Source: Candidatus Latescibacterota bacterium (lineage in GTDB: Bacteria > Latescibacterota > UBA2968 > UBA8231). Taken from it: 64,000 nucleotides of DNA. The position numbers and the translations under genes were made by a program. Of the stretch, positions 5,803 through 51,983 are shown piece after piece (position 1 is the stretch's first letter; each line of letters opens with the position of its first letter). The stretch covers positions 5,408,001-5,472,000 of the forward strand of contig OZ252098.1 in the NCBI GenBank assembly GCA_965248355.1. The letters are read 5' to 3'. Below the pieces are notes generated by a model. The model had not been told where the DNA came from. It was given only the letters and a program-made list of their open reading frames with translations, and made no database searches.

Positions 5803-5806
5803 GGGG

Positions 5807-6373
5807 CTATCCCACCAGGGCGCCGCGCAGGTCGTGAGCGCGGTCACGGATCGGTCTCGACGGCGTCGGCACCGGCTCGCCGCCGGGCTCGAGGCGCCAG
5901 ATGAAGACCGCCGGACCCTCGACCTCGAAGTGCATGGGCAGCATGCGGTCGAAGTCCTCCGGGGCGTCGATCGTGTGCACCTGGTGCAGGCCGGCTGCGC
6001 GGGCCATGGCCTCGAAGTCGACGACCCCGGCACCCGGCACGGGCTGATTGCCGGTGACCTCGTAGGTTCCGTTCTCGGTGATGATCAGGCTGTAGTTGCG
6101 GCCCCCCCCCTGGGCCATGGTCACCAGCGTCCCCAGGCACATCAGGGTGGAGCCGTCACCGTTGAGACAGAGCACGCGCCGCCCGGGCTGCGCCAGGGCC
6201 AGCCCGTAGGCCAGGTCGGCGGCGTGGCCCATGGCGCTGTCCACCGAGGCGAAGTCGAGAGGCGTGTCGGACAGCTCCGCCCAGGGCATGGCGACACTCA
6301 TGGTGGTCACCACCACGTCGTCCTGGCGCCGGGCCGCGGCGAGCTTCCTCAGGCAGCGGTACTTGTCGAGCAC
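5807..6373 (-). CDS. ThDP-dependent decarboxylase beta subunit (sulfopyruvate/phosphonopyruvate decarboxylase-like, ComE-like)
   Basis: 'SAMGHA', ThDP motif 'NGDGSTLMCLG...ITENG', 'YEVTGNQP'. Confidence 0.85.
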   Translation of the reverse strand: MLDKYRCLRKLAAARRQDDVVVTTMSVAMPWAELSDTPLDFASVDSAMGHAADLAYGLALAQPGRRVLCLNGDGSTLMCLGTLVTMAQGGGRNYSLIITENGTYEVTGNQPVPGAGVVDFEAMARAAGLHQVHTIDAPEDFDRMLPMHFEVEGPAVFIWRLEPGGEPVPTPSRPIRDRAHDLRGALVG

Positions 6374-8195: not shown

Positions 8196-8924
8196 GTGCT
8201 TCTCGCCAGGGAGCCCGTCGCCGGGAAGGCGAAGACCCGTCTGCAACCGCGCCTGACCGCCGGCCAGGCGGCCGGGCTGTACGCCGCCTTCCTGCGCGAC
8301 AGCGCCGCCAACCTGGCCGCCTCGACGGCGCGCAGAAAGATCGTGGCCGTGGCGCCGCCCGAGGGCGAGCCGGCCGTCCGCGCCCTGCTGGACGGGTACG
8401 ACGGGCTGACCTTCGAAGGGCAGCCCGGGGGCTCCCTCGGAGAGCGCATGGAAGTCCTGTGCCGCCGCGCCGTCGGCGCCGGCTGCGGACGCGTCGTCCT
8501 GCTCGGTTCCGACAGCCCCTCGTTGCCGGCTCCGTCCATCGACGAGGCCCTGCACCGGCTGCGCGCTGCCGACGTGGTGATCGGTCCCAGCGTCGACGGG
8601 GGATACTACCTCATCGGTCTGCGGGCCGAGGCGCTGCCGGCGGCGGCGCCGGCGCTCTTCCAGGGGATCGAGTGGGGTACGGGGCGGGTCCTCGAGCAGA
8701 CCCTGGCGGCTCTGCCCGGCGGGCTCCGCCTGTCGCTGATGCCGCCTTGGTACGACGTGGACGTGCCGGCGGCGGCGGCCTTCCTGCGCGCCCATCTGGA
8801 GGCGCTGGCCCGGAGCGGCGACGAGAGCACCGGCCGCCACTCCCGGGCGGCGCTGCGCGGCCTCGACCTGCCGCCGCCGAGCCAGGGCCTCGCCGCGCCC
8901 GGCGCCGGGTCTAGAGGCCCATGA
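8196..8924 (+). CDS. DUF2064/TIGR04282-type glycosyltransferase-A-like (CofC-like fold) protein
   Basis: 'AREPVAGKAKTRL', 'QPGGSLGERM', 'VLLGSDSPSLP', 'VIGPSVDGGYYLIG', 'IEWGT', 'WYDVD'. Confidence 0.85.
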   Translation: MLLAREPVAGKAKTRLQPRLTAGQAAGLYAAFLRDSAANLAASTARRKIVAVAPPEGEPAVRALLDGYDGLTFEGQPGGSLGERMEVLCRRAVGAGCGRVVLLGSDSPSLPAPSIDEALHRLRAADVVIGPSVDGGYYLIGLRAEALPAAAPALFQGIEWGTGRVLEQTLAALPGGLRLSLMPPWYDVDVPAAAAFLRAHLEALARSGDESTGRHSRAALRGLDLPPPSQGLAAPGAGSRGP

Positions 8925-9678
8925 TCCGGTAGCCGGCGTCGACGTACATCACCTCGCCCGTCATCCCGCGGCTCAGCCGGCTGCACAGGAACAGGGCCGC
9001 GTCCCCGATCTCGTCGACCTCGTTGTTGCGCTTGAGGGCGGCGCGCTCGGCGTGGACCCTGAGCATGGCGTTGAAGTCGCGGATCCCGCGCGCGGCCAGC
9101 GTGCGGATCGGCCCCGCCGAGAGCCCGTTGACGCGGATCTCCTTTTCTCCCAGCTCGCTGGCCAGGTAGCGGATGCCGGACTCCAGGGCGGCCTTGGCCA
9201 CGCCCATGACGTTGTATCTCGGGATGGCGCGCTCGCTGCCCAGGTAGGTGAGGGCGACGACGCCGCAGCCCGGCTTCATGAGCGGCTCGGCGCCGCGCAC
9301 GAGGACGTTGAGCGAGTAGGCGCTCACGCCGAGGGCCAGGTCGTACCCGCTTCGGCTCGTGTCCGCGAAACGGCCGTCCAGGTCTTCGCGGCGGGCGAAG
9401 GCGATGGCGTGGACCAGGCAGTCGAGACCGCCCATCTCCCGGGCGACAACCTCGAAAGCGGAGGCGACCGACTCGTCGTCGGTGACGTCGCACTGGACCA
9501 GCAGGGGCGGCTTCCGCAGCTGGCCGGTGATCCCCTCGATGCTCTCCAGCTCCCGCTCTCCCAAGTATCCCAGGGCCAGCCGGGCCCCCTCGCGGTCGAG
9601 AGAGCGCGCGGTGGCCCAGGCGATGCTCCTGTGGTTGGCGACGCCGGTGACGAAACCGGCGCATTCCTGCATCAGCAT
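8911..9678 (-). CDS. fabI: Enoyl-ACP reductase
   Basis: 'VTGVANHRSIAW', 'LVHAIAFA', 'ALTYLGSERAIPRYNVMGVAKAALES', 'SAGPIRTLAA'; GGGAGG RBS; start overlaps the upstream kinase gene. Confidence 0.95.
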   Translation of the reverse strand: MLMQECAGFVTGVANHRSIAWATARSLDREGARLALGYLGERELESIEGITGQLRKPPLLVQCDVTDDESVASAFEVVAREMGGLDCLVHAIAFARREDLDGRFADTSRSGYDLALGVSAYSLNVLVRGAEPLMKPGCGVVALTYLGSERAIPRYNVMGVAKAALESGIRYLASELGEKEIRVNGLSAGPIRTLAARGIRDFNAMLRVHAERAALKRNNEVDEIGDAALFLCSRLSRGMTGEVMYVDAGYRIMGL

Positions 9679-11567
9679 GCCGTGTCCTCCCTGTTGGGTA
9701 CGGCGGCGGTGGATGGGCTCTCCGTCAACTGCAGGCCGGTGGCGTCGAGCCGGTAGGCGACGACGCCGGAACGGGCATGGGCCCGTTGGTCCCTCAGCTT
9801 CCTCAGACACGCGTGGAGGCGCTTCTCTTCTCCCTCGCGGCACACGAACAGGCCGAAGCCGCCGCCGCCGGCGCCGGTTAGCGTGCCCCCTTCGGTGAAG
9901 TCGGACAAAGGCGGCTCGAAGAGCTGCTGAAGGGCGGGGCTGGTGGCCCGGGGATCGAGGATGCAGCGCAGCTGCCAGTAGCGGCTGGCCAGTCGCCCGA
10001 GGGCGCCGTAGTCGCCGGCCCGCAGGGCCTCGACCATCTCGTCGTGGATCGACAGGGACTCGCGAATGGCGCCGTAGCTCTGCCGCCGGCGGCCCAGGTA
10101 GGCCTCCATGACCACGTTCAGGCCCCGGGTGGCTCCCCTGGCGATGCCGGTGTCGAAGAGCACCACGCGGCGGCGGAACTCCTCGGCGTCGATGTCTATG
10201 TAGGTCAGTTCCGGCGCCGGAAGCCCGTCCGTGGGGGGAGCGTAGAAGTCCTTCACGGCGCTCGGACCTCCCCGGGCGCCGCGCGCGTCCTGCCATCCCG
10301 AGTTCAGGCCGATGGAGTGCTCGAGGAGCACGCTCTGATCGTAGAGTCCGGGATACTCGCCTTCGTCGCCGCCGGCCGGGTGGCCCACGAGACGGTAGAG
10401 CACCTTGAGGATGGCCGCCGCCAGGATGCTGCTGGTGCCCAGGCCGGAGCCCTGCTGCACGGTGCAGGCCGTGGTGATCTCGAGCCCGCCGCCGCCGCGG
10501 AAGGCGGCCAGGTCGCCCACCACGTCGTCGGAGTCCGGACGGACGATCCCGGTGTGCACCAGGCCCTGCTTGACCATGCGCAAGGCCTCGTCGCCGCCGC
10601 GCCGGTAGGCGAAGAACAGGTCGCTCTGGGTCCTGGCGTCGCCCCGCCGGTCGATCTCGAAGTCGGCCTGGAAGTCGGCGGAGCGCGAGCGCAGCACGAG
10701 GCGCGGCTCGGGCAGCGGCCGGGCGCCGACGTACAGGGGCGGAGCGACCTTCCCGGAGTCGCCGGCCTGCAGGACGATGCCGGCGTTCAGGGTCTTGCCT
10801 CCCTGCTCCTTGCTGCGGATGTGGTTGTCGGAGGCGTTGGCGCTCGACAGGCCGAGGCGCAGGGGGGCGCGCACCTCGAACAAGGTCTCGCGGTCTGTGG
10901 CGGCCATCGGCGCGCCGGCCGGGGGAGGGCTCCCGGCCGCCTCTAGGGATTGGTGCATGTCCTCCCTCTGCAACTCGTTCACCCGCGCCTCGTACGCGGC
11001 GGGCAGATCGGCGGCCGCCCTCTTCTCCTTCAGCGCCGTGATCGCTCGACTGTCGATGGCGCACGCGGGCAGCGAGCGCCGCCGCCAGATGCCGCCGTCC
11101 TGCAAGCGCCCGAACAGGGAGGCGAGGATGACGGCCGCCCTCATGCCTCGCAGCCGGCGCTGGGTGCCCTCCAGCTGCCCGAGGTAAGCCGACAGCTGGC
11201 CGACCGTGGCCACGAGCGTCGCGACCCCGTTCTCCGGGACCAGGGAGAGGATGTCCTCGTGGTCGACGTCGATCAGGCTGTCGACGACGGCCACCACGAG
11301 CCCGGGAAGCTCCTTCTCCACCGCCGGACCGAAGAGCTCGGTCCAGGCCTCGGAGGAGAGGGAGCCGCGCAGGATCCCGATCGCTTCCCCCGTCTGCAGG
11401 GAACGGGCAAGTCCGGGCGACAGAACCAGGACCCGCAGCAGGGCGCGGCGCCGGGCCAGTGAGAGACGACCCGCGCGGGCCTGGCGCACGACCTCGTCCA
11501 ACAGAGGCCGCACCTCCTCGAGGGAGGAGGCTTCCGCCAGGCGGGTGGTCGTCTTCTCCACGCTCAC
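9672..11567 (-). CDS. GHMP-family sugar kinase (fucokinase/HddA-like) with an unassigned N-terminal extension
   Basis: 'EVRAPLRLGL', 'QGSGLGTSSILAAA', 'SGWQD', 'GGTLTGAGGGGFG'; GTG start overlaps the upstream stop (GTGA). Confidence 0.85.
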   Translation of the reverse strand: MSVEKTTTRLAEASSLEEVRPLLDEVVRQARAGRLSLARRRALLRVLVLSPGLARSLQTGEAIGILRGSLSSEAWTELFGPAVEKELPGLVVAVVDSLIDVDHEDILSLVPENGVATLVATVGQLSAYLGQLEGTQRRLRGMRAAVILASLFGRLQDGGIWRRRSLPACAIDSRAITALKEKRAAADLPAAYEARVNELQREDMHQSLEAAGSPPPAGAPMAATDRETLFEVRAPLRLGLSSANASDNHIRSKEQGGKTLNAGIVLQAGDSGKVAPPLYVGARPLPEPRLVLRSRSADFQADFEIDRRGDARTQSDLFFAYRRGGDEALRMVKQGLVHTGIVRPDSDDVVGDLAAFRGGGGLEITTACTVQQGSGLGTSSILAAAILKVLYRLVGHPAGGDEGEYPGLYDQSVLLEHSIGLNSGWQDARGARGGPSAVKDFYAPPTDGLPAPELTYIDIDAEEFRRRVVLFDTGIARGATRGLNVVMEAYLGRRRQSYGAIRESLSIHDEMVEALRAGDYGALGRLASRYWQLRCILDPRATSPALQQLFEPPLSDFTEGGTLTGAGGGGFGLFVCREGEEKRLHACLRKLRDQRAHARSGVVAYRLDATGLQLTESPSTAAVPNREDTAC

Positions 11568-13048
11568 TCTCGCGGGGTCTTCCGGCAGCGGGCGGCCAGG
11601 CCGTCCCACACATCCAGGGAGACCCCCGCCTCGACGCGGCCCTCCCCGGAGCCGGGGAGGAACCGGGCGTGGGCCAGACCGGCGGGGCGGGGGTTGAGCT
11701 CGAGCAGCACGGGCCACACCTCGCCGTCGGGAGTCGCGTCGAGAACCAGGTCGACGCCGCTGAGACCGAGGCCGCCCACGATGCCGGCGGCGGTCTCGGC
11801 CAGCCTTCGCGCTCTCTCCAGGTCCGCACTGCGGAAGGCGACGCTCCGGCCGCTGGCGCGCAGGACCAGGGAGGAGGTCACGCTCTGCAGGGGCCGCATG
11901 CGGCCCCCGGGTCCCCGGGCGGCGGGGGTGTCGATGCCGGCGCCCACCAGGGCGTAGCCGGACTCGGCCCGCAGGCCGGAGGCGCCGGCGGCCACGTGCA
12001 GCCGGATGGCCAGACTGTGGCGGCCACCGGTCTCCGGATCGCGCCAGGCGACGCCGTCCCGCCGCTCTTCCAGGCGCGCCGGACCCCACTCCCAGCAGGC
12101 GCTCAGCTGCGCGTCCAGCAGGGCGTCGGCCTCGGGATCGGAGGCCGACAGGAAGCGCACCCCCTGTCCCTCGGTGCCGTCGTTGGGCTTGACCACGATC
12201 TGACCGGTGCGCTGCAGGAAGGCGCGGGCGGCGAGGCGATGGCCCGGCGCCACGAGTACCCCTGCCGGCACCTCGAGCCCGGCGGCCGCCCAGCGCCCCG
12301 AGAGGCCGTGCTTGTCGTCGGCGGTGGCCGAGGGAGGGCCGGGGTTGACCAGGGGGCAGGTCAGGCGGCGCGCCCAGACCAGGTGGCACCGCGTCTGCTG
12401 CGGGCCCAGGGCCAGCAGCTGCGCCGAGTGCAGGTCGGCCGGCTCCGACAGAGTGGTCTCGGAGAACCGGTCGCGCTCGGCATCCAGCCACAGGACGCGC
12501 CGGGCGCGCCCGTTGCACAGCCAGTCCCCGTGCACGCCGAGGACGCGGTAGAAGGGTCCTCCGGCGCGGGCGTCACGGACGCAGGCGTCGGCGGCCAGGG
12601 GGTAGAGCTCGTGGGTGATGAGGGGAGCCGCGGCAAAGATCACGGCGTGGTTCCAGCGTCCGCCCGGAGGCAGCTTCCGCCGGGGCCCGGTCTCGATGCA
12701 GACCTCCGGAGCCATGGGCTCGCTCACGAGGTCGGCGACGGCGAGATCGACGATGCGGCCGGCGTACTCCCCGTTCGGGCCCAGCAGGCCGCGCACGGCG
12801 GCCACCGCCCCCGGGGCCAGGGCCTGGTCCAGGCCCCCCCCGCCGGCGGAGATCCACTCGCTCCAGGCGCGGCGGCACCGGTCGCGGGCCGACGAGTCCG
12901 GCCCTCCCGGGACCGAGGCGCGCTCGGAGATGAGGTACTTCAGCAGGACGCTGGCCTCGCTCGCCGCCAGGGCCGTCCCGCGGCCGATGCCCAGGCCGTC
13001 GCAGGCCCGCGTCCAGGCGACCTCGAGGTGCCGGTCGTCGTCGCTCAC
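11564..13048 (-). CDS. ATP-grasp domain protein (RimK/ligase-like)
   Basis: 'LVNP..SATADDK..AAAGLEVP', 'IVVKPNDGTEGQGV', 'LSGVDLV', 'LLELNPRPAG'; GTGA overlaps at both ends. Confidence 0.8.
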   Translation of the reverse strand: MSDDDRHLEVAWTRACDGLGIGRGTALAASEASVLLKYLISERASVPGGPDSSARDRCRRAWSEWISAGGGGLDQALAPGAVAAVRGLLGPNGEYAGRIVDLAVADLVSEPMAPEVCIETGPRRKLPPGGRWNHAVIFAAAPLITHELYPLAADACVRDARAGGPFYRVLGVHGDWLCNGRARRVLWLDAERDRFSETTLSEPADLHSAQLLALGPQQTRCHLVWARRLTCPLVNPGPPSATADDKHGLSGRWAAAGLEVPAGVLVAPGHRLAARAFLQRTGQIVVKPNDGTEGQGVRFLSASDPEADALLDAQLSACWEWGPARLEERRDGVAWRDPETGGRHSLAIRLHVAAGASGLRAESGYALVGAGIDTPAARGPGGRMRPLQSVTSSLVLRASGRSVAFRSADLERARRLAETAAGIVGGLGLSGVDLVLDATPDGEVWPVLLELNPRPAGLAHARFLPGSGEGRVEAGVSLDVWDGLAARCRKTPRE

Positions 13049-16000
13049 CGATCCCTCTCGAGGGCCCGCAGGTAGTCCTCGCCGGCACGGCTGAGGTCGC
13101 GCAGCACGATGCGGGCGTTCTCCCCCACCCGGTCGCAGTCGAAGGGCCGGCCGCCGGCGTCGCTGGCGGCGCGTTCCCGGGCCTCCTCGCGCAGCGCCAC
13201 CCGGTCCCACAGGCCGACGCCGATGTTCGGCTCGATGAGGACGACGCGCCAGCCCGACAGGGTGCCCGGGAAGCGTCGGTCTCCATGCTGGAGGATGAAC
13301 ACGGGCTCGACTCCGGGCTGGCGGTTCACCTCGACCAGGTCCCCCGGCTCGGCGAACTGCGGCGTCACCAGGAAATCGAGCATCATGTAGCGCGGCGTGC
13401 CGTACGACAGACCGGTCAGGTCGCGGCCGACCGGACGGCCGGTGTCGCGGCGGTAGGCATCGGCGCTGCGCCCCTCGTACGCGCTCAGGGCCTCCATGAC
13501 CCGGCGGGCGGCGGCGGCCAGGCCGTCGAACAGGGCCTGCCGGCACGAGGGCTGCACGATCTCGGGGAGGAACCGCTCCAGGCTGCCGCCGCGGCCGACG
13601 TTGGTGATCAGCTGCTTGCTGTTGAGGGTGATCCAGTGGGACAGGTGCCAGCGCTGCTCGAGGGGCAGGTCGGCGGCCGGATCGTCGGAGGAGACGATCA
13701 CCCGGTGCGATCCGTAGATCGGCGACCGCGGCCGGCGCCGGCGCTCGACGGCGGAGCCCCACTCGACGACCTGGCGCCGCACGAAGGAGTCGATGAAGTC
13801 GTCGGTGGCCCAGGCCTCCGGCGAGGACAGGATCACCTCCTGGATGGCGACGTTGTGGCGCAGGCTGATCTGGTAGATGAAGTCGACGGCGCGCTCGAGC
13901 TCGGTCTCGTCGAGCGAGGTGGAGGCGAGCCGCCGCAGGACGAAGGCCCGGGCGTTGCGCCCCCCGGACTCGGCGGCGTCCTTGATCATCACCAGGCGGT
14001 GGTGCCGGGCGAACTCGCGCAGCCCGGGGTAGTCCGACCCGTCCAGGCCGTTCTCGATCGACTTCCTGGCCGCCCCCTCGGAGGACGCGCGCCGGGTGTC
14101 GGCGGCGAGCCAGTCGATCTCGTGGGGCACGTCGACGCCGGAGGCGGCGACGAAGATGTCGGGGTACTTGGCCTTGTCGTAGGTGGTCCAGGTGTGGAAC
14201 AGGGACTGCACCGAGTAGGGCAGGCCGCAGTCCTCCAGGCGCCCCTCGTGGTAGCGGGGATCGCCGTGGAAGGGATAGACCACGGCGGCCCTCAGGGGGC
14301 GGGTGAAGCGCACGGCCAGACGGACCCCCTTGGGGGTGCACTCGGCGGCGGCCTGGGCGGCAGCCGCGTCGGCGTCGAGGCCGCCATGGCGGACCAGGGC
14401 CGCCGCGTATTCCTCCCGGGAGACGTGGAGGTGGCCGGAGCAGACCTGCACGACGGGCCGGTCTTCCCCCTGGCCCTCCACCAGGTCGACGCCGCGGCTG
14501 ATGATCAGGTTGGCCCCGGGCCGTCCCGCCGCGGTCAGCTCGCGGGACAGGGTCGGACCCTCGACCAGGGCCCGGGAGTAGTGGGTGCGGCCCACGGGCA
14601 GGGCGATCAGGTGGTTGACGCGCCGGTCCGCGTCGATCAGGTCGGGATCGAAGGCGGCGAAGACGGGGGGGATCGGGAAGCCGTCGTTGCGCATGAAGGC
14701 GAGCTCGCGCAACTGTCCGTAGGCCCGCCAGCGGCGCTCCCACTCCGAGACGGCGGTGACGCCGATGGGGTCGACGGCGACCTCGCCTTCGTAGCGGCCG
14801 AGCAGCAGATCCCGATCCTGGAGCGTCCGCCCGGCCAGCTCGGTGTGATGGGTGACCACGTGGCGCAGGTAGCGGCCGAGCCATCCGTGGTGCTCGACGG
14901 CCAGCTCGTACAGGGCGTCGCCCGAGTACCCGGCGAACCCGACCCCCCGGGAGTAGACCCAGGGCCGGTACTCGTGGAAGTGATCGTCGATCGTCTCGGC
15001 GAAGAAGTCGGTCAGGGCGCGCCAGAGGCCCTCGGCGTCGGGCGGGGCCCCCGGCCGGGTGCAGGGCAGGGTCGTCTCCAGGGCCAGGAGGATGTAGAGC
15101 AGCTCGGCCCCGGCCGCCACCTGCCGCAGGCCGTGACCGGCGCCGCCGGCCCCGTCGCGCTCGACCACGGCCTGGGCGAGGCGTCCAAAGTCCCCCACGT
15201 CCTCGTAGCCGCCGGCGATCCGCCGCCAGTCCTCCGGGTCGATCTCGGGGCCGAGGAACAGCTGCGACAGGTGGTCGTGGAAGCGCTGGGCCTCGTCGGC
15301 GTGGTCCTCGTCGTACTGCTCGCTCACGAGGGCCGAGAGGGCGGTGCGGGCGTGGGCGATGAAGGCGCCGAAGGCCGCGTCGGTGACCGCCCCGCCGCCG
15401 TCGCCCAGCGCCTCCAGAGCCGCGGCCCTCGCCTCGGCGAAGGAGGCCGGCCGGCCGTCGACGGACTCGGCGCCGCGATGCCGCTCGTGGAGGGCCCGGG
15501 CGCGGAGGATGCGGGCCCGCAACTGGCTGCGGGCCTCGAGAGCGGCGGCGGGCTGGTCCTCGGCCGCCTTGTTCGAGCTCTCCAGCCCCTTCTCCTCGCG
15601 GAACTCCTCCAGCTCCGGGGGCCGGGCCGGGTGCAGGAGCAGGCTCTCCAGCTCCCGGGACTCCGCGTCTCCGGCTCCAAGGCCAAGGTCCCGGCGCCAG
15701 CCGTCGATCTCTTCCTGGGGGGCTCCGTCGAGTAGGAAGAGGCCGCCCAGGACGAGGAAGTCGGCGAAGGTGGCCCGCTCCAGGGGCAGGCCGCCGGCGA
15801 GTCGGGCCAGGGACCGGGAGACCAGCTCGTCGCGTCGTCGCAGGCGTCCGAAGCGGCGCAGCTTGTCGACCTCGCCCAGTTGCTGCTCCGCCTCCTGACC
15901 GAGGCGCACCTCGGCGAGGATCCGCTCGTACTCGGCGGCGGCGGCCTCGGCGTCGCCGCCGCGCCGGATCTCGGCCAGGCGCCGCGCCCGCCGCCGTTGC

Positions 16001-19000
16001 CGCCGCATGGCCTGGCGCCAGCCTTCGACGGTCCGGCTCCCCAGGCCGATGCCGGCGTAGACCGGCTCCCGGCCGTGGCGCTCCCCGGCGGCGAACCAGA
16101 GCATGACGTCGAGCCGGTTGAGGGCGCGGCGCCGGGCCCCGGAGGCGCCGTCGACGATGACCAGGGCGCTGTCCGGATTCCCCTCCAGCATCAGCCGGCA
16201 GACCGCCGCCGGGTCCTCCAGGAGCCGCAGCAAGCCCCGGTGGGGGATGCCGGTGTCGAGGACGTCGGCGCCCTGCAGGGCCCGTTCGTACGAGCGCTCC
16301 GGACCGAGGACCTGCAGGGCCAGGGCGTGGAGCCGGCCGCAGAGCCGCCGCGACAGGTCGGCCCGGAGGCTGTCGTCAACATCGGCCGCCGTCGCCCAGC
16401 GCTCGAGGTGGGGGCCGTAGGTGGCCAGGCTGGCGTCGATCTCGGCGTTGCTGAACCCGGCCGCGGCCAGCTCCTGGCGGGCCCCCTCGGCGATCGCCTC
16501 CAGGCTCGTGTCGCTGGTATAGCCGAGCAGGTCCTGGGTCGAGAGGCCGGTAGGGGACACGACGCGGATCTCGGCCGGCCGGGGCGGCGCGGGGAACAGC
16601 TCCCGCAGGAGGCCGGGGGTCGCCGGATCGCCGGCATCGAGACCGAGGGCGGCGGCGGCGCGGTCGGCCCGGCCGCGGCCCTCGACCCCGTCGAACCCGT
16701 CCGACAGCAGTCCCGCCAGGGTCTGCCCCTCGGCGTCGAGGGCGTGGAGCAGGTGGTCGGCCGTGCCGCACAGGATCTCGAACTTGCGCATGCCGGCGGC
16801 GAACCGGCCGTCCTGCGTGTCGGGCTTGTACTCCGCGGTGAGCACCACCACCGGGGCGGCGGCGACGCCCTCGTGACGGCGGGCGGCCTCGGCCAGGGCC
16901 CGCCGGGTCAGCCAGACCTTGAAGAAGGGCATGAAGCGGTTCACGTGCTCGGCGCCGGCCACCATCTTGTGCACGCCCCAGCGCGCCACCCGCGCCGTGG
17001 TGGCGCGCTCCGAGTCCCGCAGCTCGGGCTGGCCGAGCCCCTCCAGGACCTCGGCCAGGCGCGTGATCTGGAAGACGGGGACGGGTCCCCGCTCCCCCTC
17101 CCGGACGGCGAACAACCTGCCGAGGCCGGCCACGTCGCCCAGAACTCCGGCGGCCCAGGCCTCCCACTCGAAGCGCGCGGCGAAGTCCTCGCGGCGGCCG
17201 AGGATCCCGACGGCGGCGCGGGCGACCCCGTCGTGGTGCTCGGCCGGCACGCCGAGCTGACGCAGCTTCTCGGCGCGGCCGAGGGTGAGGACGAACTCGA
17301 GGAACAGGCCGTCCTTGGGCACGCAGTAGCCGCCGTAGCCCTCGCCGGCCGGATGGATCACGCGGTCGCCCCGGCGGCTCATCTGGTCGCCCATCTCCTC
17401 GATGTCGCCGTGGCCGCTGGCCGAGACCATGAGGGACAGGGCGTTGGAGAAGGCGAGGTGCGAGGCCATGCTGGCGTTCTCGCCCGTCTTGAGGATCTCG
17501 GGCTCGGTGAGGCTGTCGTAGCTGCGCACCGACTTGTTGATCAGCCCGTAGATCTCTCGTCCGGCCCGCGCCGAGGCGCGGTCGGCGCCGCCGACCCACT
17601 GCGACCAGGTCTCCACCGACTCCCGCTCCCGGTGGCCGAGGTCGACCCGGCTCGGGGTGTACAGCAGGTGATAGCGCTTGTCGCCCCCGGCGGCTCCGTA
17701 GCGGTGGGCCGGATCGAGGCTCAGGTGGGCCAGGCCGTGGCTCAACAGCACCTGCTTGCGGGCCGTGGTCTTCGCCAGCCGCGAGAACCGGCGCAGGTAG
17801 GTGCGCCGGCGGTCGTCGCCATCGGCGCCGCCTTCGCGGGACCACTCGGCCAGCAGCCGGCGCCGGGCCAGGAACCGGGTGAAGCTCTCCAGGTCCTGTC
17901 GGTAGTCCTCGTCCCCTTCCACGACGCGCACCAGGGCGGCCGGCCGCGACAGGGCCGGCTCGGCGGCGCGCAGGGCGGCCACCTCCTCCTCGAGCTGACG
18001 GCCGTTGCGCGCCGCCACCCGGTCCAGGGCCTCGCGGGACAGCTCCTCGTCCCGGGCCTCGCACAGCCGCCCGATTTCGGCGGGATCGGAGACGTCGCCG
18101 GCCTCGCGCTCGCCGCCGCGTTCCTCCGCCAGCTCGAGCAGGGCGCCCAGGACGGCGACCTCCTCCTGCACCGTGCGGTTGCGGCCGACGACGCGCGACA
18201 CGGCCGCGCTCTCGTCGAGATCCTCCTCGGCGGCGGTCTCCTCCACCTCGACCCGGATCCCCAGCTCGCGCACCACCCGCTCCCCGAGGGCGCACAGCCG
18301 CCGGCGGTAGAAGGCCCGTCGTTCGTCGACCTCGGACTCCAGCCCGCGCGCGGCCACCACGTTGTGCAGGGCCATCGACTCCTCGAGCCAGGTGCGGATG
18401 TAGCCGTCGGTCATCCCCGCCGACTGGGTGGTCAGCACGTGCAGCACCGGCAGAGGACGGCGGGGCTCGAGGGCCCCCCGGTGGAGGGACCGGGCGCGGG
18501 CGGTGCCGACCTCGGCCTCGAGATCGACGAGGCTCGACCAGGGCTCCTGCCGGGCGCGGGTCAGGGCATCGGCGAGAGTCGAGCCGGACTCGTCCGACCA
18601 CTCGAGCAACAGGGCGCACAGGGCCTCGAAGGGCTCCTCCTCCTCGCGCTCGATGCGGCCCCGCAGATCGGCGGCGCGCTCCCGGGCGAGGCGCGACACC
18701 AGCCCGGCGGCGCGGGCGATCTCCGCGGACGGGTCGCCCGGCGCGGCGCGGGCCCAGTCGAGGGCGGCGGCCTCGTCCCCGCCCGGGCCGGCCTCCCGGC
18801 ACAGGAGCCAGCGCGCCGCGGCCAGGTACTCGGTGTCGGCCACGTCGCGCAGGTTCGCGGCCCAGTGGTCGGCCATCTCCTCGCGGAAGGACTCCTCCAT
18901 GCCGTCGATGTCGATCACCGTGCGCGTCGACTCGACGCCTTCGTCGTCGACGAGGACCTCCTCCTTTATGAACAGGGGGATGGCCTCGATCCAGTGGTCG

Positions 19001-20559
19001 GAGACCTCCAGCCAGCGGTAGTCGGGGCTGGAGTAGAGGCGGTCGCCGGCGAGGCGCACCAGCTTGGTGAGGTTGTCGGCCTTGCCCAGGTAGGGCTCCT
19101 CGAACTCGTTGATCTTCACCAGCAGGTGCGAGCCGGTGGGGGAGGGGCGCTGGCTGATGACGACGTAGGCGGCGTTTCTCGAGGGGGACCGCAGCAGCTC
19201 GCCGCGCACCCGCTCGACCAGGCCGAGGCGCCGGCGGACGAGGCCGCTCGCCGAATCGACGTCGAGGGCGGTCTCCGGGGCGCCGGCCAGCTCATCGCCG
19301 TGGTCCTCCACCCGGGCGCGGGCCCGGTGCAGTCCCTGCATGAGGTCGTCCCGCTGCGCGTCGAGAACGGCTTCCTCGTAGCGCTCGCAGGCCCCCTCCA
19401 GCTGGATCAGGGAGACCGCCTGGTCCACCTCCAGCAGCAGCCGCAGCTCCAGGGCCGGCGACTGCAGAGCGGCGGCCCCGGCGGCGGCCGTCCAGGCCTC
19501 CTCGGCCAGCGGCTTCCAGGCCGGCGTCGGCGAGAGGCGCACGGCGTCGGCGAAGAGCGTGCCCTGGTTGTGGAAGGCGCGGCTCATGCGGCCGAAGACC
19601 AGCTCCTGTCCCGAGGACCGGGTCTCGCGGGAGAGGCGGCGGATGTTCTCCGCCTCGACCTCGCGGTCGTAGTCGCGCAGCACGCCGTAGAGCAGCAGGC
19701 GCTTGTCGTCCACGTCGGCGTCGCTGTCGAGGATCTCGCCGGCGGCCCGGCGGTCGTAGGGCAGGTCGAGACGATCCTGGCCGAGGAGCCAGGTGATCCA
19801 CCGGTCGCGGCCGTGCGGGGCTTCTTCGCGGCTCGCCCGCCGCAGGAAGGAGGAGAACAGGTTGCCGGCGTCGAGCTCTCCCGAGCCCTCGAGCAGGGCC
19901 AGGAGCACGGCCTGGTCCGGCCGTCCGAGACGGCCGTGGAGGTCGACGACCCAGTGCAGGGCCTGGCGCAGCGAGGCGCCGCGGACGACGTCGAGCTGGG
20001 CGAACAGCCCGAGGGCGAGGAGGAGCTCGACGCCGCGCAACCGCTCGGGCACCTCGGCGCTCAGATCGTCCTTGGCCTCCAGGCCGATCCCGAGGGCGGC
20101 CATGGCGTCGGCGGCCAGCCACAACCGCCGGCCGTCGAAATCGAGGAGGCGCTCGTGGCCCCGGCACAGGACCAGGGGCCGGTCGGTGCCGCGCAGGCTT
20201 GCGGCCAGCTCCGCCAGGCGGGCGTCGCCCTCGAAGCGCCGGGAGACCAGGCGGGCGGACCGTTCGCACAGCCGGGCCGCCAGCGCCGCCTCGGGGCCGG
20301 CGTCGTCGGGAACGGCCACGGACGTGTCGGCAAAGGGGCGGGAGCCGAAGGCCAGGGAACCGGCGGCCAGGATCTCGCCGGGGCCGCGCCGGGCGCGGCA
20401 GATCCCCGTGGGCCGGTGGTGGTCCACGAGCCGGAGGGGAAGGCCCTGGAGGCTCAGCGGCGGGGGCACGGTAACGGGCGAGGTTTCATCCCCGGTCTGC
20501 GGGAGCCGGTCGTCGTTCTTGTCGCCGGGAGAGATCCGGGGGTTGCTGACGGGGGCCAC
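13045..20559 (-). CDS. 2504-aa fusion: split UDP-glucose/GDP-mannose-family nucleotide-sugar dehydrogenase plus C-terminal ATP-grasp ligase
   Basis: Dehydrogenase motifs in the expected order: 'KINEFEEPYLG..GDRLYSSPDY..DHWIEAIP', 'TTQSAGMT', 'YTPSRVDLG', 'WVGG', 'EILKTGENA', 'GEGYGGYCVPKD', 'HVNRFMP', 'AEYKPDTQD', 'ALQGADV', 'IVDG', 'YAGIGLG'. ATP-grasp motifs: 'VYPFHG..LEDCGLPY..YDK..SGVDVP', 'IKDAAESGG', 'IQEVI', 'TNVGRGG', 'LDF', 'LIEPN'. Start uncertain. Confidence 0.8.
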   Translation of the reverse strand: MAPVSNPRISPGDKNDDRLPQTGDETSPVTVPPPLSLQGLPLRLVDHHRPTGICRARRGPGEILAAGSLAFGSRPFADTSVAVPDDAGPEAALAARLCERSARLVSRRFEGDARLAELAASLRGTDRPLVLCRGHERLLDFDGRRLWLAADAMAALGIGLEAKDDLSAEVPERLRGVELLLALGLFAQLDVVRGASLRQALHWVVDLHGRLGRPDQAVLLALLEGSGELDAGNLFSSFLRRASREEAPHGRDRWITWLLGQDRLDLPYDRRAAGEILDSDADVDDKRLLLYGVLRDYDREVEAENIRRLSRETRSSGQELVFGRMSRAFHNQGTLFADAVRLSPTPAWKPLAEEAWTAAAGAAALQSPALELRLLLEVDQAVSLIQLEGACERYEEAVLDAQRDDLMQGLHRARARVEDHGDELAGAPETALDVDSASGLVRRRLGLVERVRGELLRSPSRNAAYVVISQRPSPTGSHLLVKINEFEEPYLGKADNLTKLVRLAGDRLYSSPDYRWLEVSDHWIEAIPLFIKEEVLVDDEGVESTRTVIDIDGMEESFREEMADHWAANLRDVADTEYLAAARWLLCREAGPGGDEAAALDWARAAPGDPSAEIARAAGLVSRLARERAADLRGRIEREEEEPFEALCALLLEWSDESGSTLADALTRARQEPWSSLVDLEAEVGTARARSLHRGALEPRRPLPVLHVLTTQSAGMTDGYIRTWLEESMALHNVVAARGLESEVDERRAFYRRRLCALGERVVRELGIRVEVEETAAEEDLDESAAVSRVVGRNRTVQEEVAVLGALLELAEERGGEREAGDVSDPAEIGRLCEARDEELSREALDRVAARNGRQLEEEVAALRAAEPALSRPAALVRVVEGDEDYRQDLESFTRFLARRRLLAEWSREGGADGDDRRRTYLRRFSRLAKTTARKQVLLSHGLAHLSLDPAHRYGAAGGDKRYHLLYTPSRVDLGHRERESVETWSQWVGGADRASARAGREIYGLINKSVRSYDSLTEPEILKTGENASMASHLAFSNALSLMVSASGHGDIEEMGDQMSRRGDRVIHPAGEGYGGYCVPKDGLFLEFVLTLGRAEKLRQLGVPAEHHDGVARAAVGILGRREDFAARFEWEAWAAGVLGDVAGLGRLFAVREGERGPVPVFQITRLAEVLEGLGQPELRDSERATTARVARWGVHKMVAGAEHVNRFMPFFKVWLTRRALAEAARRHEGVAAAPVVVLTAEYKPDTQDGRFAAGMRKFEILCGTADHLLHALDAEGQTLAGLLSDGFDGVEGRGRADRAAAALGLDAGDPATPGLLRELFPAPPRPAEIRVVSPTGLSTQDLLGYTSDTSLEAIAEGARQELAAAGFSNAEIDASLATYGPHLERWATAADVDDSLRADLSRRLCGRLHALALQVLGPERSYERALQGADVLDTGIPHRGLLRLLEDPAAVCRLMLEGNPDSALVIVDGASGARRRALNRLDVMLWFAAGERHGREPVYAGIGLGSRTVEGWRQAMRRQRRRARRLAEIRRGGDAEAAAAEYERILAEVRLGQEAEQQLGEVDKLRRFGRLRRRDELVSRSLARLAGGLPLERATFADFLVLGGLFLLDGAPQEEIDGWRRDLGLGAGDAESRELESLLLHPARPPELEEFREEKGLESSNKAAEDQPAAALEARSQLRARILRARALHERHRGAESVDGRPASFAEARAAALEALGDGGGAVTDAAFGAFIAHARTALSALVSEQYDEDHADEAQRFHDHLSQLFLGPEIDPEDWRRIAGGYEDVGDFGRLAQAVVERDGAGGAGHGLRQVAAGAELLYILLALETTLPCTRPGAPPDAEGLWRALTDFFAETIDDHFHEYRPWVYSRGVGFAGYSGDALYELAVEHHGWLGRYLRHVVTHHTELAGRTLQDRDLLLGRYEGEVAVDPIGVTAVSEWERRWRAYGQLRELAFMRNDGFPIPPVFAAFDPDLIDADRRVNHLIALPVGRTHYSRALVEGPTLSRELTAAGRPGANLIISRGVDLVEGQGEDRPVVQVCSGHLHVSREEYAAALVRHGGLDADAAAAQAAAECTPKGVRLAVRFTRPLRAAVVYPFHGDPRYHEGRLEDCGLPYSVQSLFHTWTTYDKAKYPDIFVAASGVDVPHEIDWLAADTRRASSEGAARKSIENGLDGSDYPGLREFARHHRLVMIKDAAESGGRNARAFVLRRLASTSLDETELERAVDFIYQISLRHNVAIQEVILSSPEAWATDDFIDSFVRRQVVEWGSAVERRRRPRSPIYGSHRVIVSSDDPAADLPLEQRWHLSHWITLNSKQLITNVGRGGSLERFLPEIVQPSCRQALFDGLAAAARRVMEALSAYEGRSADAYRRDTGRPVGRDLTGLSYGTPRYMMLDFLVTPQFAEPGDLVEVNRQPGVEPVFILQHGDRRFPGTLSGWRVVLIEPNIGVGLWDRVALREEARERAASDAGGRPFDCDRVGENARIVLRDLSRAGEDYLRALERDR

Positions 20560-20764
20560 CTTCGGGGAGCTCCCGGCCGCCGGCGGGAAGGCAAGCCCGG
20601 CCGGTGAGGGATGGAAGGAGGGAAATTAGACCCCCGCGGAAAGGCGGGCAACACCGCCTGGGGGGGCTCTCCCCTCGGGCGGGATGCCCTTCGCGCCTGC
20701 AGAAGAAGAGCCGCCCCGAAGCGTGGGGAAGGGCCGTTGAGGGCCTCCCTTCAGGCGGCCGCGG

Positions 20765-21307
20765 TCAGGATTCCTCCTCCTCCTCGGCGAACAGCTCGGC
20801 GAGGTCGTAGACGTCCTCTCCGACGGTCACGGTCCCTCCGTAGGTCGGCGGATCGGTCGTGGCGTCGATGGTGATGTCCACGTTGACGTCGACCGGACCT
20901 TCCTGGCCCCCCAGCCCGCTGGCCACCAGGTCTCCCTTCAGAGTCACCGGTTGAACGAGAAGGTCCAGTGTCAGCTCGCCGTCGAGGACGAGCTGGCCGT
21001 CGGCCGAGAAGGATTCCAGCGTCAGCGTGCTGCCCGTCACCGCAAGGGTTCCCTGCTCCCCTTCGATGGTGCCGCCTCCGGTCAACAGCAACCCCATCGC
21101 CTTGACCACCACGGGCTCGAGGGCCGAGAACAACCCCTGAACCTGCTCCTGCGCCTCGGCGGCCTCCTCTTCCTTCGTCGTTCCGTTCTCCGGCCCGGTC
21201 GGTCCGTTGCCCTCGTCGTCGCCGCAGGCCAGGGCGAGCAGGGCGAGGGGCATGATGAGCAGGATCAGCCTCCGGGTCCCGCGGTAACGGCCGGGAACCT
21301 GTCTCAT
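20765..21307 (-). CDS. Hypothetical lipoprotein
   Basis: GGAGG RBS before ATG 21307; basic N-terminus, hydrophobic stretch and lipobox 'LLALAC GDD'. Confidence 0.75.
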   Translation of the reverse strand: MRQVPGRYRGTRRLILLIMPLALLALACGDDEGNGPTGPENGTTKEEEAAEAQEQVQGLFSALEPVVVKAMGLLLTGGGTIEGEQGTLAVTGSTLTLESFSADGQLVLDGELTLDLLVQPVTLKGDLVASGLGGQEGPVDVNVDITIDATTDPPTYGGTVTVGEDVYDLAELFAEEEEES

Positions 21308-21369
21308 GGAATCCTCCATTTTATTGGTGGCGTTGGTGGCGGCATCACGGCGCCGGTCGAACCGGTGGC

Positions 21370-21587
21370 TCACGGCTTCGCCTCGACGAAGCGGAGAAGC
21401 TCCTCCCTCGTCCTGGCGTAGTTCAACAGGTACACGGCGACGACCAGGTCGACCTGGTCGTCGCCGCTCGGGAGGTCTCCCAGGATCTCGAACAGCGAGT
21501 AGGCCTCGACATATCTGCGAAAAGCAGAAGCTTCGAGTCCTGGTAGGCTTCGGCGATGGCGTCGTACTGATTCTCCGATGGACTCAC
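21370..21587 (-). pseudogene. Remnant of a class I SAM-dependent methyltransferase (ToxA-like), frameshifted and internally deleted
   Basis: Frame 1 'ENQYDAIAEAYQDSKL', then after a frameshift 'FRRYVEAYSLFEILGDL' joined through a short linker to 'DLVVAVYLLNYARTREELLRF'; the SAM-binding LDLxCG segment is missing. Confidence 0.65.
21435..21466. repeat. Perfect 32-bp palindrome
   Basis: cggcgacgaccaggtc|gacctggtcgtcgccg, with no loop. Confidence 0.95.
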
Positions 21588-21645
21588 GAGTCTCTCCCGA
21601 CGCATGACTCGGCCCGGACCGGAACTCGACGGCGGGCTGGATCCC

Positions 21646-22044
21646 TCACCTGCGGGTGGTCCGGGCGCGCCGGGCGCTGGCGAGCAGGGCGGACACGTCC
21701 GACAGCAGGGCCTCGTTCTTGAAGGGCTTTTCAAGCACCCGGTCGGCGCCGGCGATGCTGGCCAGAGTCGTGGCCAGTTCCGGGTTCTGGTGCATGCCGC
21801 CGCCGGAGATGGCGATGATGCCGAGGGCGGGATGGCTCTTGCGCAGCTTCTTGATCAGCTGGACGCCGGTCATCCCCGGCATGTTCACGTCGGTCAGGAG
21901 GATGTCCGGACCGTGGGAGGCCACGCTCTCCAGGGCCGCTTCGGAGCGGTCCGCCTCGAGGACCTGGTACCCGGAACGCCGCAACAGCATGGCCAGCGCC
22001 GAGAGGACGCCCTCGTCGTGCTCGGTGATCAGGACGGTGGCCAT
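21646..22044 (-). CDS. Stand-alone response regulator receiver protein
   Basis: 'PDILLTDVNMPGMTG', 'IIAISGGG', 'LEKPF'. Confidence 0.9.
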   Translation of the reverse strand: MATVLITEHDEGVLSALAMLLRRSGYQVLEADRSEAALESVASHGPDILLTDVNMPGMTGVQLIKKLRKSHPALGIIAISGGGMHQNPELATTLASIAGADRVLEKPFKNEALLSDVSALLASARRARTTRR

Positions 22045-22047
22045 GGT

Positions 22048-23055
22048 TCAAGCCTCCGCTTCGGACCTGGGGATGAGGATCTCGAAGGCCGTCCCCTCGC
22101 CGGGCGACGACTTGACGGTGATCTTGCCATGCCATCCCTGGACAAAGCTGTCCACCACGGCCAGCCCCAGGCCCGTGCCCTTCCCGGTCTCCTTGGTGGT
22201 GAAGAAGGGCTCGAAGACCTTGTCCCTCACCTCGGGCGCCATGCCGGTGCCCTCGTCGGCCACGGTCACGCGGACATACCGGCCCGCCGCCAATCCCCGG
22301 GAGCGTGCGCCCCGGGCGTCGAGGGTGAGGGCGTCGAGGCCGATCGTTACCGTGCCCTTCCGGGTCATCGCCTCGGCCGCGTTCTTGAGCAGGTTCGTCA
22401 ACACCTGCCTGAACTCCGTCGGGTTGACGCGGATGGCGCCGGTCTCCTCCGCGATCCGGGTCTCGATCTGGATGCGGCTCCGGTAGGAGTCCTGGGCCTC
22501 GGCGGTGAAGTCCGCGAGATCCCGCGCCGGCGCCACTTCCTCCGGCTCCTGGGTGCCGCCGGCGGGGAAGGCCAGGGTGCCCTTGACGATCTCGGAGCCG
22601 TGCTCGGCGGCCTTGAGGATGTGCCGCATCCGGCTGCGGCGCTCCTCCGGCGAATCCTCGCGGTCGAGGCTGATCTGGGCCAGGGTGATGATGGGCTGCA
22701 GGACGTTGTTGAACTCGTGGGCGAGACCTCCGGTGAGGGCTCCCATGGCCGCCATCTTGCAGGCTTCGCCGAGCTGATCCTCCGTGGCCCGGCGCTTCTC
22801 CACGGCCTGCGCCAGGCGGGCTTCCGTTCTCTTCAGCTCGCGGTTCAGCCGCGAGGCCTCGCGCCAGCGCTGCGCGGCGAACCAGACGATCACGAGGGCC
22901 AGGGCGGGCACGGCGGCGAGGGCCTCGCCGAACTCCCACTTCCGGTAATGGCGCGTCATGTCCAAGAGGGCCTCGACCAGGTCGATCCTGGCGAAGGCGT
23001 AACCCATGAGGGCACAGGCGAAGGCGCCGATGATCAGGTCCCTGGAGGCTTTCAT
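22048..23055 (-). CDS. Membrane-anchored sensor histidine kinase
   Basis: Two N-terminal hydrophobic segments; 'GGLAHEFNNVL', 'QVLTNLLKNA', 'DEGTGM', 'FEPFFTTKETGKGTGLGL'. Confidence 0.92.
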   Translation of the reverse strand: MKASRDLIIGAFACALMGYAFARIDLVEALLDMTRHYRKWEFGEALAAVPALALVIVWFAAQRWREASRLNRELKRTEARLAQAVEKRRATEDQLGEACKMAAMGALTGGLAHEFNNVLQPIITLAQISLDREDSPEERRSRMRHILKAAEHGSEIVKGTLAFPAGGTQEPEEVAPARDLADFTAEAQDSYRSRIQIETRIAEETGAIRVNPTEFRQVLTNLLKNAAEAMTRKGTVTIGLDALTLDARGARSRGLAAGRYVRVTVADEGTGMAPEVRDKVFEPFFTTKETGKGTGLGLAVVDSFVQGWHGKITVKSSPGEGTAFEILIPRSEAEA

Positions 23056-31396: not shown

Positions 31397-31503
31397 GGGA
31401 GGGCGGTCGAGGGGGCGTGAGAGGGCGCTAGGATAGGCCTTCCCCGAAAGAGGATCAAACGCCCGGCCCGGGAGAACCGGGGCGGCTCGCAGGGAGCAAA
31501 CCC

Positions 31504-51907: not shown

Positions 51908-51983
51908 TACGGAACGATTCGCAGGGCGAGTGTGCCGCAAATCGGAGACTCTGTCAAGGCCATCCCGCAGGAGGTCGCTCCAA

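Follow-up and report, generated by a model that had tools for sequence, protein, structure and literature searches.

Within a 64,000-nucleotide stretch of the genome of a Candidatus Latescibacterota bacterium (assembly GCA_965248355.1, contig OZ252098.1, positions 5,408,001 to 5,472,000; hereafter the window), we analyzed a giant gene on the minus strand (13045..20559) together with its two downstream neighbours. Comparisons with known enzyme families show that the predicted protein keeps a catalytic centre like that of the nucleotide-sugar dehydrogenases WecC and Cap5O, with the Lys, Asn, Cys and Asp residues intact. The giant, an ATP-grasp ligase and a fucokinase-type GHMP sugar kinase very probably constitute a conserved three-protein system, an assessment that covers both the architecture and the three-protein unit. 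Our overall best explanation, held with moderate confidence, is that the giant contributes the catalytic centre and an ATP-grasp-like module to a three-protein sugar-acid pathway. All coordinates are those of the window, and the features described lie on its minus strand unless stated otherwise.

The dehydrogenase core (residues 958–1097; 17269..17688) comprises the last Rossmann strand and the central domain. Using Pfam, we recognized the central domain of UDP-glucose/GDP-mannose dehydrogenases (PF00984) at residues 1021–1087 with 26.1 bits against a cut-off of 25.4; it was found in all 19 diverse giant members scanned, and no second family recurred among them. The NCBIfam model TIGR03026 was likewise matched in 19/19 members, residues 960–1089 of the giant aligning with profile positions 144–274 of 413 (E 1.8e-15). 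The best solved relatives are of the WecC/Cap5O type (3g79, 4r16, 3ojl; E 1.5e-8 for 3g79), and LLYTPSRVDLG, KTGENA and GYGGYCVPKD of the giant pair with LAHAPERVMVG, KTAENT and GVGGHCLTKD of 3g79. These segments hold the core motifs YTPSRV (Ser970), KTGENA (Lys1024, Asn1028) and GYGGYCVPKD (Cys1079, Asp1083). Lys1024, Asn1028, Cys1079 and Asp1083 are invariant in 36 aligned members as well as in 48 sequences that include fusions of 27–34% identity, and GGxCxPKD is present in 109/109 members of at least 2300 aa. The ratio of nonsynonymous to synonymous substitution rates (dN/dS) was computed segment by segment with a close relative (L001) as reference; its lowest value in the protein, 0.04, is that of the core. 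An intact dehydrogenase centre had been claimed in an earlier note on this DNA, and the Pfam, NCBIfam, 3g79 and motif matches, together with the profile alignment described below, support it; the alignment of homologues that the note had suggested as a check bears it out for Lys, Asn and Cys.

Profiles for comparison were built from enzymes of related genomes, 26 of them WecC-like and 14 of the Ugd type. By hhalign, residues 959–1273 of the giant are collinear with WecC positions 138–349 of 420 (probability 97%, E 5.8e-11), a likeness that runs from the last Rossmann strand across the central domain to about residue 70 of the C-terminal domain. The start of this sugar-nucleotide-binding C-terminal domain (residues 1199–1273; 16741..16965), with the VNRFMP helix and the VVVLTAEYKPDTQDGR strand and loop, aligned by itself with WecC 278–349 (Prob 91%, E 1.3e-6). 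In the 3g79-type alignment, past ~100 unmatched residues, VNRFMP...VVVLTAEYKPDTQDGR pairs with (I/V)N(D/E)(F/R)MP...LAYKGGTDDTR, and the motifs K-x-x-x-N, GGxCxPKD and (Y/F)Kxx(T)DDxR keep in the giant the spacing they have in WecC/Cap5O-type enzymes. An unfiltered hidden Markov model (HMM) of WecC, run on the 36 members, recovered the core stretch in 36/36, the 1199–1273 stretch (weakly) in 35/36, and nothing else.

Because of one conserved, family-specific insertion of ~100 aa after the Cys motif (residues 1098–1198; 16966..17268), visible as an alignment gap with a conservation of 0.57 and a dN/dS of 0.26, about 210 canonical residues span 315 in the giant. The dehydrogenase had previously been described as stretched by insertions; this holds at least at residues 1098–1198, between the Cys motif and the AEYKPDTQDGR strand, but only residues 958–1273 are demonstrably dehydrogenase-like. 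Compared to the WecC/Cap5O nucleoside diphosphate (NDP)-sugar 6-dehydrogenases (UDP-ManNAc / NDP-GalNAcA), the giant is ~six times longer, has no N-terminal NAD-binding or complete C-terminal domain detectable by sequence, and carries an invariant Ser in place of the catalytic Glu of P-E-R. A canonical NDP-sugar dehydrogenase is encoded elsewhere in the same genome (453.7 bits).

This Glu-to-Ser change was absent from the earlier note, as were the conservation of and selection on the inserts and the separate ATP-grasp and GHMP kinase genes next to the giant, with their fusion to it in other organisms. Ser970 occupies the Glu site of the (S/N)-P-E-(R/F) motif: P-S-R-[VI] occurs in 107/109 giant members and P-E-R in 0/109, whereas the Glu is kept in 26/26 WecC-like and 14/14 Ugd-type enzymes. 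Based on residue spacing and on the NPEF motif, we take the site to be equivalent to Glu161 of human UGDH (hUGDH). The distance from this Glu or Ser to the Lys is 59 residues in hUGDH, 53 in WecC-like enzymes and 54 in the giant, and that from Lys to Cys is 56 in hUGDH compared to 55. In its passages on this residue, the published hUGDH study (PMC3265891) describes Glu161 as the base that drives hydrolysis of the thioester on Cys276 and reports for the E161Q variant a kcat of 0.0014 versus 0.85 per second (~600-fold lower), with accumulation of the acyl-enzyme. Since Ser970 replaces the thioester-hydrolysing Glu, the giant may set a free acid free only slowly, or may follow another route altogether.

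Next to the giant lies the partner ATP-grasp ligase (11564..13048; 494 aa), which scores 29.5 bits with PF02655 (cut-off 23.2) and just below the cut-off with PF14397. Its profile matches RimK (3vpd, 2.1e-6), Ddl (1.7e-5), LysX (2.2e-5), cyanophycin synthase (4e-4) and GshAB, and the comparison of the partner family with RimK by hhalign gives 2e-6. It is the ATP-binding domain that matches RimK, LysX, D-Ala-D-Ala ligase and the G-domain of cyanophycin synthetase (E 2e-6 to 4e-4), and the partner differs from these in an extra, unassigned N-terminal domain of ~230 aa. The third gene (9672..11567; 631 aa) encodes a GHMP sugar kinase with above-threshold matches to PF00288 (27.5 vs 22.3 bits) and PF08544 (25.9 vs 21 bits) and to NF009948 (E 1.3e-34). 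Its kinase part, residues 225–613, aligns with the whole L-fucokinase domain of FKP (E 2e-23) and also with heptose (phosphate) GHMP kinases (5yys, 9iip, 3k85 and 4usk for the group as a whole), and the motif II GSGLGTSS is invariant. Unlike FKP, it is without a nucleotidyltransferase half and instead carries an unassigned 224-aa N-terminal part. In 24 comparisons, the N-terminal parts of the two partners showed no homology to the giant or to each other (best E 0.027).

The three genes are tightly linked and translationally coupled. Both junctions are GTGA stop/start overlaps, the first joining the TGA of the giant to the GTG of the ATP-grasp gene and the second the TGA of the ATP-grasp gene to the GTG of the kinase gene. 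A scan of one genome per species yielded 57 giant loci; of the 45 with enough downstream DNA, 36 have the start of the partner ATP-grasp gene no more than 600 nt from the stop of the giant, and a GHMP kinase lies within 3 kb downstream in 21/39 loci. All five tested genomes in which the partner is not adjacent encode it elsewhere (E 1e-77 to 1e-168), with a GHMP kinase directly after it. Cultured methanotrophs show the same gene order with a short kinase of 334–346 aa, and in one locus (L022:16800-20075) the ATP-grasp and GHMP kinase form a single open reading frame (ORF) of 1092 aa directly after the giant. Elsewhere, the three proteins are fused in operon order into chains of 3,000–7,900 aa: a partner-type ATP-grasp trails the giant within the same chain in 15/19 mega-proteins, mostly from Omnitrophota metagenome-assembled genomes (MAGs), and GHMP_N was detected by Pfam in 8 of the 12 mega-proteins scanned. 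Fused forms are misnamed "galactokinase".

Five of these mega-proteins (P0184, P0187, P0203, P0206 and P0215; 4,400–7,900 aa) have 1,100–3,400 residues preceding the giant module, and P0206 shows a weak CsrA-like match. Upstream of many loci we found histidine kinase and response-regulator genes (of the PAS-HK, sigma-54 activator and HDOD type); their counterparts in the window comprise a histidine kinase and a receiver that stands alone. The PADLOC defence-system models gave no match for any of the four proteins queried.

The C-terminal module of the giant (residues 1941–2504; 13048..14739), of which the last 355 aa (nt 13048–14112) are ATP-grasp-like, quite probably adopts an ATP-grasp fold, judging from its motifs and distant relatives. 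From about residue 1941 onwards it is an evolutionary unit that recurs mid-chain in proteins of 3,000–7,944 aa and also in short proteins; an exhaustive phmmer search with residues 1984–2504 returned 87 proteins at E ≤ 0.001. When the window sequence was aligned with 20 loci plus 11 distant relatives of short length, four motifs appeared in ATP-grasp order, namely VMIKDAAESGGRN (Lys2193), IQEVI (Gln2240), TNVGRGG (Asn2320) and LIEPNIGVGLW (Glu2443, Asn2445), with successive distances of 47 aa from Lys2193 to Gln2240, 80 aa to Asn2320 and 123 aa to Glu2443. Distant members show the textbook forms IIKPxxxSGGRG for VMIKDAAESGGRN and IEPNPGxGLW for LIEPNIGVGLW. We take the Lys/Gly-rich loop, the Q-E hinge, N-x-G-G and the Mg-binding E-x-N to be ATP-grasp hallmarks, and their order is the same as in RimK-type ligases. 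The motifs are present in 98–108 of 109 members (K-loop in 108, NVGRGG in 106, EPN[IV]G in 107).

In the Atlas, which compares proteins by language model, the ten best neighbours of residues 2050–2504 that carry a name all belong to the ATP-grasp clan (PurP, RimK, ATP-grasp_3; score 0.94). In 7/19 distant relatives, ATP-grasp families (PF14397, PF14398, PF14305) are the sole recurrent Pfam matches, all sub-threshold and all in the homologous stretch. A PDB match at E 1.4 (2dzd) aligns the Lys and the Gly-rich loop with the biotin-carboxylase domain of pyruvate carboxylase, and hhalign of the module against the partner ATP-grasp family gave 115 collinear columns at E 0.005, which is not significant (controls 0.034 and 0.16). 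Within the window's own genome, the profile of the module matches itself alone. The Ddl/RimK-like C-terminus proposed in the earlier note is therefore probably right with regard to its four motifs, Atlas neighbours and sub-threshold matches, but a significant match was not obtained.

The ORF at 13045..20559, as the earlier note had given it, is present in the ORF list with 2504 codons and a GTG start and is confirmed by its translation and coding signature. The G+C content at its three codon positions (GC1/2/3) is 0.78/0.50/0.95, which in DNA of 74% G+C identifies the giant ORF as a real gene, and sliding phase analysis revealed a single unbroken coding phase from ~13050 to 20550. Because the G+C content around the giant gene is 70–75%, several frames contain long ORFs; those on the plus strand at 13285-15735 and 15880-20607 (GC1 0.95) were rejected as antisense shadows of the giant. 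The length of 2504 aa requires revision at the start. The first 30 residues are unconserved (gap fraction 0.86 in the alignment of members), codons 1–30 have a dN/dS of 1.0, and cluster members with a length of 2474 aa exist, so that the true start is probably the GTG at 20467–20469 (Val31), giving a predicted protein of 2474 aa.

No membrane-type hydrophobic segment is predicted in the translation, and the giant is likely a soluble, cytoplasmic multidomain enzyme of ~2474 residues. A terminator-like stem-loop just upstream (20633..20648), the sole such site in 8500-22500, suggests that a new transcription unit begins at the giant, with a site count that is not above chance (1 found vs 1.6 expected). 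No sigma-54 promoter was found upstream of the giant, and window-wide counts of such promoters are at chance.

Based on a word-seeded search, the giant has at least 146 homologues at E ≤ 0.001. The best 120 of these 146 are 1441–2679 aa long and 37–98% identical, and most cover 90–100% of the giant; their named sources comprise Latescibacterota, Armatimonadota, Methylococcaceae, Omnitrophota and others. Among the matches listed, all that carry a name are called "hypothetical protein" except P0079, a "Rossmann-fold NAD(P)-binding domain-containing protein". Over its whole length, the 36-member alignment averages 52% column identity, and it contains hundreds of invariant positions. An uninterrupted ORF of >2300 aa is present in 44/57 giant loci, which include those of two cultured, non-pathogenic methanotrophs, the isolates KoM1 of Methyloglobulus morosus and HT12 of Methylovulum miyakonense. 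A search for compact, split or stand-alone relatives yielded only fragments of the same family (58 matches to residues 1850–2504 and 22 to residues 300–1100), and no internal repeats were found among 55 pairs of sequence segments (best E 0.03).

Within the window's phylum, the giant module occurs in 40/168 genomes: in 9/9 genomes of the own genus, in 33/75 of the own family, and in none of several other families. In the methanotroph's family, it is found in 3/151 sampled genomes. A midpoint-rooted FastTree topology built from 45 full-length sequences, with neither support values nor topology tests, places the Methylococcaceae as a single clade within sequences labelled Latescibacterota or Gemmatimonadota, which suggests a possible gene transfer. 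Some genomes carry two giant copies (G004 and G030; locus pairs L036/L042 and L039/L040), and in one MAG with two giants, L036 has an adjacent ATP-grasp gene and L042 does not.

Outside the parts described so far, the N-terminal 40% of the giant (residues 31–957; 17689..20469) has no family, PDB or Atlas match, and the conserved middle (residues 1512–1940; 14740..16026; conservation 0.54, dN/dS 0.24) is likewise without a match. Nevertheless, dN/dS lies between 0.04 and 0.31 everywhere except in residues 571–697 and the first 30 codons, with 0.08–0.16 in the conserved blocks other than the core and 0.19–0.31 in most remaining segments. All nine motifs that the earlier note had quoted were found in place, and the alternation of conserved motifs with Ala/Glu/Arg-rich stretches that it described holds true: the blocks have a mean conservation of 0.73–0.82 and an A+E+R fraction of 0.21–0.25, compared to 0.38–0.57 and 0.33–0.46 in the stretches between them. 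As judged from alignment and substitution rates, the inserts are conserved and selected and thus more than mere linkers. The sole internal segment evolving almost neutrally comprises residues 571–697 (nt 18469–18849), with a dN/dS of 0.64 against L001 and 0.85 against a second relative, L004, and a conservation of 0.38, the lowest of the giant; it is probably a flexible, near-neutral linker joining two halves of the N-terminal region.

A tentative refinement, compatible with our explanation of the giant as a sugar-acid pathway enzyme, is that a single UGDH/WecC fold with a degenerate GxGxxG spans, in stretched form, roughly residues 320 to 1507. LVFGRMSRAF (block 318–335; 19573–19602), AAYVVISQRPSP (19138–19173; block 461–570, which also holds KINEFEEPY), LHVLTTQSAGMT (block 698–735; 18409–18444) and HLLYTPSRV would then be the Rossmann strands beta1, beta4, beta5 and beta6, separated by loop insertions of 100–250 aa. 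The four blocks are the best conserved of the N-terminal half and under its strongest selection, each of them reads like a hydrophobic strand leading into a loop of small or polar residues, they stand in canonical order, and the name of homologue P0079 points in the same direction. HLLYTPSRV, the last strand, is the sole upstream element that could be matched to the canonical N-terminal domain. Since proven homology begins at this strand (WecC position 138), the sheet must exist upstream of residue 958 and its remainder needs a source; the mapping in the earlier note is therefore the most natural guess.

Direct searches, however, did not recover such a domain. Pfam and NCBIfam revealed no N-terminal NAD-binding domain (PF03721) in 19 members, positions 1–140 of the WecC HMM remained unmatched in 36/36 giant members with filters off, and focused hhalign comparisons for a Rossmann domain at the proposed blocks gave E ≥ 0.05. 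Among 80 sliding hhalign windows compared to two N-domain profiles, the best (E 0.017) fell at residues 119–156 and not at the proposed sites. A profile including distant fusions matched the central domain but no N-domain in the PDB, the Atlas query with residues 300–955 returned no usable neighbour, and no conserved GxGxx[GA] was found upstream of the dehydrogenase core; a test with a short sub-HMM of the N-domain had no power, as its positive control failed. The assignment of FGRMSRAF, KINEFEEPY and TTQSAGMT to beta1, beta4 and beta5 is thus unsupported, though not refuted.

At the other end, residues 1427–1511 (16027..16281) may represent the end of the C-terminal domain. Their hhalign alignment with the Ugd C-terminus is collinear and pairs GADVLDTGIPH with ADAlvimTEW, LVIVDGASGA with v.DgRN, and VYAGIGLG with f.Y.gvGrg, which puts YAGIGLG where it had been proposed to lie. 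Its E-value of 0.045 is not significant, though, and of the seven control segments one reached a better value (0.0038), so that the alignment does not stand out from controls. PF03720, the Pfam model of the C-terminal domain, was seen solely in one distant relative (E 0.023).

For the three-protein system we tentatively propose the following chemistry. The GHMP kinase would phosphorylate a sugar at its anomeric carbon to yield a sugar 1-phosphate. At the Cys1079 centre of the giant, a primary alcohol group of this activated sugar, or of a compound derived from it, would next be oxidised towards the acid via a covalent thiohemiacetal/thioester on Cys1079. Finally, ATP would activate the carboxylate, and the ATP-grasp-like module of the giant together with the partner ligase would couple it to one amine or two, probably amino acids. 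Keeping the active sites together would fall to the other ~1,500 conserved residues. The expected result is a sugar-acid amide in the cytoplasm, or a short chain that has the sugar acid as its base. The amidation step has a precedent in Cj1438C, an ATP-grasp which the pertinent passages of PMC11800379 describe as amidating the C6-carboxylate of glucuronate.

Several observations weigh against this explanation. The whole-protein score with TIGR03026 is 56.7 bits (55.8 bits in the genome scan) and thus far below the cut-off of 189.8. As no sequence method detected an NAD-binding domain, cofactor use is only a proposal, and Ser970 would argue against release of the acyl-enzyme by canonical water attack. 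With regard to the C-terminus, the last 355 aa of the giant in the window had no match in Pfam at E ≤ 1 and no significant ATP-grasp match in the PDB. The C-module as a whole remained at chance level against the PDB, a TIM barrel (0.17) scoring as well as any; hhalign of the module against five RimK sequences gave E 0.15, and among eight giant regions compared to the partner family the best P was 0.13. Profile searches found no nucleotidyltransferase in the three proteins. Moreover, 9/45 loci are without an adjacent ATP-grasp gene and 18/39 without an adjacent GHMP kinase gene.

Some of these points would fit a pseudo-dehydrogenase scaffold that is redox-dead and merely binds a sugar-nucleotide-like ligand or oligomerises, the chemistry of the system being restricted to phosphorylation and ligation. 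The undetectable NAD-binding domain, the family-wide loss of the hydrolytic Glu and the low TIGR03026 score would all be expected in that case. We nevertheless consider it unlikely: the redox/covalent residues Lys, Asn, Cys and Asp are invariant across members and fusions, the core is under the strongest purifying selection of the giant, and the invariance of Ser970 itself hints at selection for a role rather than at decay.

Somewhat less likely again is a polymer synthetase, in which the two ATP-grasp units would build a poly-amino-acid or a sugar-acid-primed storage or protective chain. Its appeal lies in the RimK, LysX and cyanophycin synthase matches of the partner, in the combination of two ligase units with a very large conserved body, and in the two-component regulators upstream of many loci; the partner matches are, however, limited to the generic ATP-binding domain (positions 236–336), and Pfam/NCBIfam scans of giant members revealed no Mur-ligase-like or primer-binding domain. 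An artefact, be it an assembly chimera or separate genes read as one ORF, might be suspected from the unusual length and from a few shorter homologues on long contigs (P0132, P0135, P0144; perhaps split or frameshifted), but is refuted for practical purposes by full-length collinear homologues in several phyla, by the unbroken ORFs in most loci including two isolate genomes, by the coding signature and purifying selection along the gene, and by the source genome being a single contig of 5.5 Mb.

Among known systems, the C-terminal domain of Campylobacter jejuni Cj1438, a TupA-like ATP-grasp, resembles the system under study in being a carboxylate-amine ligase with genetic ties to the formation of uronic acids. 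Cj1438, an enzyme of the capsule, is joined to a glycosyltransferase and has polysaccharide as its substrate, whereas the inspected loci and the translation of the giant contain no glycosyltransferase, export gene or membrane segment. In the giant, the ligase-like module is instead fused to a dehydrogenase-like body, and its family membership is below statistical significance. As for the Pfam families PF14397, PF14398 and PF14305, the partner matches PF14397 besides PF02655, and distant relatives of the giant's C-module are sub-threshold in all three.

The rest of the window is ordinary chromosome. A FabI gene and three further genes near the giant are syntenic solely in the lineage labelled Latescibacterota or Gemmatimonadota (16–17 loci) and were placed outside the three-protein unit. 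These three encode a CofC-like TIGR04282 "arsenosugar" glycosyltransferase (8196-8921, plus strand), a 397-aa protein (6888-8078, minus strand) and a nickel-pincer-cofactor isomerase of "group 22" (4564-6033, minus strand; NF052515, E 1e-151). The TIGR04282 protein has a nucleotidyltransferase fold and could matter for sugar activation; it is not adjacent to the methanotroph copies. The 397-aa protein is 67–93% identical over 17 related loci, better conserved than the giant, and had no Pfam, NCBIfam or PDB match.

Two ORFs with coding-like GC3 had no Pfam match: one of 202 aa (20768-21373, minus strand), conserved solely in four close relatives, and one of 493 aa (35844-37322, minus strand). 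The sole low-GC stretch of the window (24–28 kb; GC 0.60–0.63 vs ~0.72) holds a gene for a 1099-aa Type ISP-like restriction/modification protein (25799-29095, minus strand; PF18135 E 4.5e-71, N6_Mtase) and is probably a horizontally acquired island. A radical SAM/SPASM protein with a terminal SEC-C zinc motif (30065-31516, minus strand) adjoins a DUF6807 protein (29141-30043, minus strand). Two tandem AcrB-type RND pumps and one HlyD-type adaptor are encoded at 43822-46941, 46947-50783 and 50783-51940 (all minus strand), the second pump ORF measuring 1279 aa compared to a family model of 1021 positions.

Literature searches aimed at the giant family found no published description of it. Its catalytic superfamilies are familiar ones; undescribed are its architecture, the replacement of Glu by Ser, the three-protein unit and ~1,900 conserved residues that have no assignment. 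About 75% of the 2,500-residue giant is without a recognisable family, yet the protein is 37–98% identical across distant phyla and under purifying selection, and its recognisable part is a redox/covalent centre with a family-wide change at the product-releasing residue. In an improbable but far-reaching variant of the proposed chemistry, the Ser970 swap would leave an enzyme-bound sugar-acyl thioester unhydrolysed, to be intercepted by an amine or handed to the two ATP-grasp units. If this were true, the giant would operate as an assembly line, in concept comparable to a non-ribosomal loading module. Methanotrophs, Latescibacterota-like bacteria, Armatimonadota and Omnitrophota would then use it, along with the sugar kinase, to make a novel conjugate or polymer of sugar acid and amino acid. 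Overall, the gene overlap, fusion and co-occurrence of the dehydrogenase-like centre with two carboxylate-amine ligases, one of them the giant's own module, and an anomeric sugar kinase point to an undescribed sugar-acid pathway in the cytoplasm.

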